Notes: generated by a model not told the origin, from the letters alone. A stretch of 52,370 nucleotides of DNA from Reclinomonas americana ATCC 50394 (GCA_048213135.1 PS015098.1:1-52370), one strand, 5' to 3'. Shown: positions 29,548-30,249, counted from the stretch's first letter. Translations and numbers: made by a program.

Positions 29548-30249
29548 TCACCCTGCGCAGGTACTGGAGACAGCGGAGCACCAAACAGCAATGGCGAGCA
29601 CGGGTTGATTGCAGGAGTTGGTCAGCAGATTGTAGCAGGACTCGGGGTGCAGCAGGATGCCACGATGGACGGCGGCCATCAGTTCGCGCAGCGCTCGGAT
29701 CGAAAGGCCGACAACATCAAGGCGACGACTCCACCGCTGACAGCGCTGCCGCAAGATGGCCTCCACCAGGAAGAAATCGAATGTGGCGTCACGCAGCTCA
29801 TAGACTCGCTTCAGCAGGCGCACTGCGGCAGCCTCCTTCGCGTGCGGTCTCCACACTGTCGTGAACGCCCACTCGGATCCGTCAGCCACTGACGGAATCA
29901 GGTAGACGTCGTTGCCCATGTCGACAGCAGGCACCAAGTCGCACGACAGCGTCAGCGCAGCGTCAGGCAGTGGCAGCCGCACGACCACAGCCGGATAGTC
30001 CCACACCACACCACCATCCAGGTGAACAAACGTGTCACAGATGCGCTGCACAATGCCGCCGAGACCAACTCTGGCCACCTGCTCGCCCGACACAAGCACC
30101 AGCACATCCAAGTCGGCCGCGCGACTGACCACAGTGTGCTTGGCGCGACTGCCGGCGAGAACAACAGGAAGCGCGAGTTGACGAGCGAGAGAGGAAACGA
30201 GCACGCCAACACTCTCATCGTCTCTGTCGCACGCTCCCAGCGCCAGCAT
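29548..30249 (-). CDS. cGAS/DncV-like (CD-NTase/SMODS, OAS-related) nucleotidyltransferase, 233 aa, apparently intronless
   Basis: Real ATG at 30249. Pol-beta motif LAGSRAKHTVVSRAADLDVLV (hGS-x-x-K-x-T...DxD) and third Asp in SCDLVPA followed by YLIP....W..T. C-lobe motifs VRLLKRVY, FFLVEAIL and ILLHPESCYNLL echo OAS/CD-NTase IRLVKHW, YxLELL and ILDPxxPxxN. Confidence 0.8.
   Translation of the reverse strand: MLALGACDRDDESVGVLVSSLARQLALPVVLAGSRAKHTVVSRAADLDVLVLVSGEQVARVGLGGIVQRICDTFVHLDGGVVWDYPAVVVRLPLPDAALTLSCDLVPAVDMGNDVYLIPSVADGSEWAFTTVWRPHAKEAAAVRLLKRVYELRDATFDFFLVEAILRQRCQRWSRRLDVVGLSIRALRELMAAVHRGILLHPESCYNLLTNSCNQPVLAIAVWCSAVSSTCAG

Follow-up and report, generated by a model that had tools for sequence, protein, structure and literature searches.

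The open reading frame and its coding signal

The DNA analysed here, a stretch of 52,370 nucleotides from Reclinomonas americana ATCC 50394 (GCA_048213135.1 PS015098.1:1-52370, hereafter the window), carries on its minus strand a single-exon coding sequence for a protein of 233 residues (the query), which lies between a convergent thiolase gene and a small spliced gene. From its sequence, the query is predicted to be a pared-down and highly divergent SMODS/CD-NTase of the bacterial branch within the Pol-beta nucleotidyltransferase superfamily. The uninterrupted open reading frame (ORF) of 233 amino acids that a first-pass annotation had described was recovered on the minus strand, and translation with the standard code agreed with it. 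The stop-to-stop frame extends 14 codons beyond the ATG, up to position 30291, with M1 as its first ATG.

The ORF showed the same codon-position pattern as the adjacent thiolase exon: G at the first position was 0.42 (0.40 in the exon), T at the second 0.34 (0.31), and A at the third 0.07 (0.04). A codon model, for which the Hsp70 and thiolase exons supplied a training set of only 325 codons, placed the ORF 10th among 272 ORFs, with ranks 1 and 2 taken by the training exons themselves, and the frame of the ORF beat its other five (-0.09 versus -0.22 to -1.10). Its codon usage differs from that of these two housekeeping genes. In the window, 139 stop-to-stop frames are at least 150 codons long. 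Long chance frames occur in its GC-rich DNA, so the length of the ORF is by itself no evidence; one such frame, of 240 codons at 28997-29716 on the minus strand, is antisense to the final exon of the thiolase gene and, in a different reading frame, overlaps the 3' end of the ORF. This antisense frame had no family match and scored poorly in the codon model (rank 83 of 272).

Homology to bacterial SMODS/CD-NTase cyclases

Homology to SMODS/CD-NTase enzymes, as first proposed from motifs, was borne out by family models, by independent profiles, and by hhalign. SMODS (PF18144) was the sole Pfam match (E 0.059). The NCBIfam model CBASS_cyclase_b (NF041117), named for the cyclic-oligonucleotide-based antiphage signalling system (CBASS), matched residues 31-141 with an E-value of 9.7e-7, and seven of the eight PADLOC matches were CBASS 'Cyclase' models (best E 9.8e-6), the match to PDC-S09 covering 33 residues. 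None of nine control ORFs from the window matched a cyclase model; seven had no match, and two had unrelated matches at E 0.023 and 0.077. No rival family was the best match: at E<=10, Pfam returned no PAP_assoc, NTP_transf_2 (PF01909), OAS1_C (PF10421), or Mab-21 (PF03281) model and none for poly(A) polymerases (PAP) or terminal uridylyltransferases (TUTase). The archaeal CCA-adding model TIGR03671 matched weakly and over residues 23-54 only (E 0.05, 12.4 bits against a cut-off of 281.3).

The tblastn search of 72,556 plasmids (7.3 Gb) returned 11 records with database E-values of only 0.02 to 3, nine of them annotated as CBASS oligonucleotide cyclase, one as nucleotidyltransferase, and one as a Rhodococcus hypothetical protein carrying PF18144. 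The top score in a language-model search was 0.96 (196 of 256 features shared), which about 1 in 100 shuffled proteins attain; among its 30 matches, 23 clusters carried SMODS with NTP_transf_2, five SMODS alone, and one SMODS with NTP_transf_2 and Polbeta, and the six clusters displayed were 212-271 amino acids long. With the profile of a 21-row alignment (A3), 903 matches were found among 8,000 candidates scored; the best 120 of the 903 all carried PF18144, with named sources that were all bacterial and none that was eukaryotic. Other searches were null. With phmmer, the Protein Data Bank gave only a pilus-like chain (E 0.7), and none of two pattern matches in viral contigs, or of 132 in genome contigs searched with the alignment of query and Rhodococcus protein, was confirmed.

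Two apparent relatives on metagenome contigs (L042 and L043) were rejected as galactokinase (Pfam GalKase_gal_bdg, 6.9e-23). The bacterial galactokinase at 2536-3738 (+) of metagenomic L043 shares with residues 151-159 of the query the exact peptide LRDATFDFF (8-mer RDATFDFF), and this chance identity produced a misleading tblastn E-value of 2e-6 and a pairwise BLASTP E-value of 1e-7. Because such a decoy reached 1e-7, the pairwise E-values of preselected partners (database E 0.02-0.5) were given no weight, and profiles were built from bacterial proteins only. One set comprised 30 comparators, and an independent set comprised 13 proteins selected with family models alone (NF041117 in 401 genomes and PF18144 in two plasmids). 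The query scored 44.3 bits with the 30-protein profile, where the best of 3,000 shuffles reached 8.5. The 13-protein profile gave it 25.2 bits; the best of 3,000 shuffles reached 7.3, the best of the 197 other window ORFs of at least 100 amino acids 3.7, the galactokinase -2.4, and the reversed query -3.4. Alignment by hhalign reached 97.8% (E 9.8e-13) against the 30-member alignment, uninterrupted over residues 29-205, and 94.1% over residues 29-172 against the independent set. The reference set consists of real CD-NTases: its profile matched CdnC (5.3e-89), CdnD (2.2e-56), OAS2 (8.2e-25), and CdnE (1.1e-24). On these profile scores, the query is very probably a true, very distant homologue of the bacterial SMODS/CD-NTase (CBASS) cyclases.

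These scores, far above those of shuffled and reversed sequences and of all other window ORFs, also count against the explanation that the ORF is a chance frame in GC-rich DNA, or a product of bacterial contamination or misassembly. Long chance ORFs such as the 240-codon frame do exist here, and the protein looks bacterial and has no known eukaryotic relative, but this explanation is highly improbable and largely refuted. No N run lies between the last exon of the intron-bearing thiolase gene and the ORF, so the ORF is linked to host DNA and does not come from a stray contaminant contig; the upstream gene on the same strand has a GAG|GTGAGT donor, the codon-position pattern is like that of host exons, and the closest bacterial protein is about 30% identical at most. 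We consider the ORF a genuine, if only predicted, gene of a eukaryotic chromosome.

Conserved residues of the protein

All the motifs named in the first-pass annotation are present and in the order given: GSRAKHT (residues 33-39), ADLD (45-48), CDLVPA (103-108), YLIPSVADGSEW (116-127), T130, VRLLK (143-147), FFLVE (159-163), and ILLHPESCYNL (198-208). The Pol-beta signature is represented by AGS (33-34) and, after an 11-residue spacer, D46-L-D48, with D104 as the later acidic residue. G33, S34, T39, D46, and D48 were invariant in alignment A3 and in a 36-row alignment (A4), and they align to the profile consensus GSfargT...DvDv. The D104 column was conserved at 80% in A3 and 91% in A4, the V106 column at 95-100%, and the T130 column at 85-91%. 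The three catalytic Asp (D46, D48, and D104) and the G33/S34 loop fall on the catalytic columns of the family and thus appear intact, as had been proposed, and the YLIP...W..T hairpin, which had been called bacterial in type, aligned to the bacterial profile consensus.

In the helical lobe, R144, K147, and E163 are retained, with W149 replaced by Val and S159 by Phe. In solved CD-NTases, the donor triphosphate is contacted by the RLxK lysine and the KSFxxE serine. The columns of D104, V106, P107, T130, R144, K147, E163, P202, and W223 were conserved at 80-100%, and the query retains 15 of the 21 columns conserved at 80% or more, versus 52 of 217 columns overall. This pattern of retention fits selection on the core, past or present. 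The protein is also unusually short, as first described, with 233 amino acids versus 253-524 in all 30 bacterial comparators, and its N-terminal helix is shorter than that of the family.

Table 1. Coordinates of the coding sequence, its conserved elements, and the adjoining spacers
Feature	Position	Strand	Description
CD-NTase-like single-exon coding sequence (P0001)	29548..30249	-	ATG start, 233 codons + TGA; basis: ORF call, coding signal, homology, fold
Pol-beta nucleotidyltransferase signature, hG[GS]x9-13Dh[DE]h	30103..30156	-	Residues 32-49, AGSRAKHTVVSRAADLDV; G33, S34, T39, D46, D48
Strand with third acidic residue D104, CDLVPAV	29923..29943	-	Residues 103-109; consensus vDiVPa
Bacterial-type hairpin after third Asp, YLIPSVADGSEW	29869..29904	-	Residues 116-127, then T130; consensus 'ylipdrddgs.W'
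First helices of C-terminal lobe, VRLLKRVYELRDATFDFFLVE	29761..29823	-	Residues 143-163; paired by hhalign with VRllK~W...Sf~lE
LLHP, counterpart of family [IV]xDP element	29644..29655	-	Residues 199-202; P202 retained, D201 -> H
Spacer, 115 nt	29433..29547	.	Reaches to stop codon of convergent thiolase gene, last exon end 29432 (+)
Spacer, 107 nt	30250..30356	-	Between TGA of upstream same-strand gene and ORF ATG; sequence read directly

Predicted structure

The model built with an alignment of 36 rows had a predicted local distance difference test score (pLDDT) of 78.8 and a predicted template modelling score (pTM) of 0.76, and it showed an alpha/beta core followed by four helices. CdnC was the best Foldseek match of this model (E 3.1e-7), and cGAS chains were among the top matches. 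In a wide search with VIA, which is independent of Foldseek, ranks 1-13 were all CD-NTase/cGLR chains (Z 16.2-13.9), the best being ClCdnE (7x4g; Z 16.2, root-mean-square deviation 3.6 Å, 225 residues aligned). Poly(A) polymerase (Z 13.8), OAS1 (13.7), TUT7 (13.1), NRAP/Utp22 (13.0 and 12.5), and the CCA-adding enzyme (11.6) followed, so that the PAP, TUTase, and CCA folds ranked below 13 CD-NTase/cGLR chains in the modelled comparison. These fold matches are partly circular because the guiding alignment consisted of CD-NTases, and we take the alignment-guided fold as supportive, not independent.

The PAP/TUTase folds lie only 2-4 Z units under the best CD-NTase, and this shared fold speaks for an active nucleotidyltransferase of other chemistry, such as RNA 3'-end tailing of the PAP/TUTase kind, CCA-type addition, or nucleotidylation of a protein or small molecule. 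The weak archaeal CCA match points in the same direction, and the altered pocket positions S159 and D201 could mean a different substrate. At the sequence level the evidence is against it: the models of these other families were absent from the Pfam results at E<=10, every match with E<0.01 except the 33-residue PDC-S09 match was to CBASS cyclase models or genes, and the YLIP...W..T hairpin with the RLLK, E, and xP series is the bacterial CD-NTase consensus. The 233 amino acids also hold no RNA-binding or further domain. We regard such other chemistry as improbable.

In a library of viral structures, only two matches were found at E<=1e-3, the better one being an uncharacterised Hyperionvirus protein (E 5.2e-4, TMq 0.62), and with these two matches as its sole yield, the library makes no case for a viral donor.

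Genomic setting and origin

Of the two flanking genes that had been described as rich in introns, the thiolase gene was confirmed as split, since different ORFs matched Thiolase_N (E 1.8e-11) and Thiolase_C (E 2.9e-35), and the Fuzzy gene was not recovered. No Fuzzy family match was found among 122 ORFs of at least 95 amino acids at 18-42 kb (E<=1e-4), a scan in which short exons could conceal it, nor in a scan of the four adjacent pieces at E<=1. The families found in the 18-42 kb scan at that first threshold were HSP70, thiolase, and NAD-GH only. The HSP70 match (E 1.5e-61) is to an Hsp70 exon at 18165-18698 (-) with an apparent intron before it. The NAD-GH match (PF10712, E 2e-33) concerned one ORF; matches to this family often arise as antisense artefacts of chaperone genes that are rich in GC.

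Upstream of the ORF on the same strand lies the small spliced gene at 30357-31059 (-), with its TGA at 30357 and its ATG at 31059. Its first exon begins MAGVCIVRHAICLDVNGQ, continues into an acidic, Gly-rich tail of low complexity, and ends at the canonical donor GAG|GTGAGT. Its last exon is Ala/Gly-rich and hydrophobic (AFPVAAAAMYLTVAPGRAVLAGAVGSLAAAL) with the C-terminus SDDAKEKK*, and the gene matched no Pfam family at E<=1 beyond noise. The spacer between this gene and the ORF ends in ...ttttacacaag|gtcgATG, in which the cacaag|g site directly before the ORF ATG resembles a splice acceptor and is a possible, putative one. A tRNA-Gly (GCC) gene at 31290-31360 (+), located between the small gene and the next plus-strand region, was the sole match of the Rfam scan (63.3 bits). 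The window contains 17 N runs (28756-28775, 30535-30554, and 31501-31520 among them), seven of exactly 20 bases, and at least those at 28756-28775 and 30535-30554 are embedded in CT/GA-rich sequence of low complexity. Larger runs of 205-726 bases break the sequence at 23.6-26.7 kb, 40.7-41.4 kb, and 48.0-48.5 kb, which leaves neighbouring genes partly unreadable. CBASS is defined by a cyclase beside effector or regulatory Cap genes, and the neighbours here are the thiolase gene and the small spliced gene without a family; operon logic is not to be expected in a eukaryote.

In a tree with the bacterial rows, the query joined weakly (SH-aLRT, the Shimodaira-Hasegawa approximate likelihood-ratio test, 83) a group of CdnC-like proteins, cyclases of 314 amino acids, and one further row (L036); the rows nearest to it by path were two CdnC-like proteins (L032 and L033). 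No donor is named because no well-supported clade contains the query. Regarding the retrocopy that the first-pass annotation had offered beside horizontal acquisition, no marks of a retrocopy or mobile element were found, with neither flanking direct repeats nor an A-run after the stop codon and short low-complexity repeats only. A hairpin of bacterial type in a eukaryotic protein is most naturally read as horizontal transfer from bacteria, with no donor or date assigned.

Proposed catalytic activity and significance

The reading that we tentatively prefer is that the query is a still-active, signal-making enzyme, which is quite possible, short of probable. D46, D48, and D104 would hold two Mg2+/Mn2+ ions, and the GS loop together with K147 would grip the triphosphate of the donor NTP. 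From nucleotides the enzyme could then make a di- or oligonucleotide, linear or cyclic, as the signal for an unlinked receptor. With the shortened helices and the changes W149V, S159F, and D201H, its nucleotide choice and regulation would probably be unlike those of the characterised enzymes.

Several results weigh against this reading, besides the partial circularity of the fold matches. The AlphaFold2 model from the single sequence had a pLDDT of 35.6 and no usable fold. All family matches were under the curated cut-offs (PF18144, 14 versus 26.5 bits; NF041117, 28.6 versus 200; NF041116, 12.6 versus 200), and the C-terminal half alone was non-significant, ranking 4-6 of 3,001 with two profiles and 128 with a third. 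The exhaustive search found no relative among 1,835,955,588 representative proteins at E<=0.001, in a library whose content of eSMODS is unverified, and since none of the representatives matched, the query's own sequence is not among the predicted proteins either. None of 5,388 candidates in the word-index search that shared words with the query passed E<=0.01. The terminal branch of the query measured 2.53 changes per column, with deviant composition and no supported clade. W149V, S159F, and D201H alter three columns conserved at 90% or more, about 12 residues after W127 are deleted relative to the family, and the loop before LLHP is shortened. The per-codon score of the ORF was middling, about -0.1 versus +0.5 for the training exons. 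Of the 122 ORFs in the 18-42 kb scan (about 12 kb around the ORF, E<=1e-4), none matched an effector or receptor family.

The main rival is that the acquired CD-NTase gene no longer encodes a working signal synthase and persists as a relic or pseudo-enzyme, possibly unexpressed, or expressed in a non-catalytic or an unknown role, with no stop codon in it yet. The orphan status, the extreme branch length and composition, the lost conserved positions and deleted elements, the codon score far under that of the housekeeping exons, and the lack of a nearby partner domain in that scan are all in its favour, as is the squeezing of the gene into 916 bp that leave it the two short spacers. Against it, the frame is intact with a start and an end that both suit the family, the three-base periodicity is clear, and the five invariant core residues are kept together with the nine in the 80-100% columns listed above. 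Had the gene decayed freely over 2.5 changes per site, one would not expect 15 of 21 conserved columns to survive at an overall identity of 24%. We judge the relic unlikely, and still the most serious of the rivals.

A further-reaching form of the preferred reading is that the query is the founder of an unseen, ultra-compact lineage of eukaryotic CD-NTases, independent of cGLR, OAS, and eSMODS, which is active and whose messenger is read by an unlinked and possibly unrecognised receptor. We consider this rather unlikely. If it were true, a protist would have a minimal cGAS-like immune pathway, unannotated and hence hidden from surveys of proteomes. Bacterial-type CD-NTases in eukaryotes are proposed stepping stones from CBASS phage defence to animal cGAS/OAS immunity. 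An intact version of 233 amino acids without detectable relatives would extend their known range, would show that proteome-based surveys miss such genes, and would give one of the smallest natural scaffolds for the minimal requirements of a CD-NTase. An inactive relic would still be a dated footprint of the transfer of an immune gene from a bacterium to a eukaryote.

Comparison with known systems

The CdnC/CdnD-type CBASS CD-NTases (NF041116/NF041117; 6p80 CdnC and 6p82 CdnD) have the GS...DxD...D core in common with the query, as well as the YLIP..W..T hairpin that follows the third Asp and the succession of RLxK, E, and xP in the helical lobe. The best BLASTP partners of the query are cyclases of this type of 314 amino acids (27-29% identity over 111-171 residues), which sit in operons annotated with 'ATP-binding protein' and '3'-5' exonuclease' genes. 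The query differs from them in its location on a eukaryotic chromosome without operon partners, in its length, and in the three substitutions W149V, S159F, and D201H.

The SMODS protein of Rhodococcus opacus plasmid pLPS8 (P0002, 334 amino acids) has DLVPA.D....YLIPS..D.S.W and LLKR in common with the query, with 31% identity over 102 residues. It matched CBASS_cyclase_b below the threshold (E 2.9e-11) and was a singleton in the word-index search. The protein exceeds the query in length by 100 residues, at both ends, and the tree does not join the two; their pairwise E-value of 5e-8 overstates the link because this protein reached an E-value of only 0.5 in the database-wide tblastn search. The same linear plasmid carries three separate SMODS-domain genes above the Pfam cut-off (6076-6558, 657985-658440, and 653335-653646; L004, L006, and L008), two of which, about 4 kb apart amid hypothetical, PIN-domain, and AAA-ATPase genes, may mark an uncharacterised defence island.

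OAS and cGAS/cGLR enzymes share the predicted fold and the catalytic triad with the query (Z 13.7 for OAS1, 15.5 and 14.8 for cGLRs, and 12.8 for mouse cGAS, all against the model), but the query has no OAS1_C or Mab-21 match at E<=10 and carries the bacterial-type YLIP..W hairpin. Its 233 amino acids compare with 346-387 in the OAS1 and cGAS/cGLR targets of the structure search. OAS and cGAS/cGLR proteins carry nucleic-acid-sensing surfaces and extra inserts, for which a protein of 233 amino acids has no room.

The eSMODS (Culbertson & Levin 2023, PMC10732462) are, by that paper's account, only a dozen sequences from few lineages, none of them characterised, which all score PF01909 too and are nested in bacterial clade D with a bootstrap of 99. 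Among the publications listed on eukaryotic eSMODS/CD-NTases and, from 2023 onwards, on SMODS/CBASS transfer to protists, titles and abstract openings mention no gene such as the query, which is not proof that it is unpublished. The eSMODS survey searched predicted proteomes (EukProt) and would therefore overlook an unannotated ORF. The query differs from the eSMODS described there in that PF01909 is absent at E<=10, SMODS is sub-threshold, and it falls in no supported clade. Like them, it is a bacterial-type CD-NTase in a eukaryote with SMODS (PF18144) as its best Pfam domain, not Mab-21 or OAS1_C, and eSMODS is the closest described category for the query.

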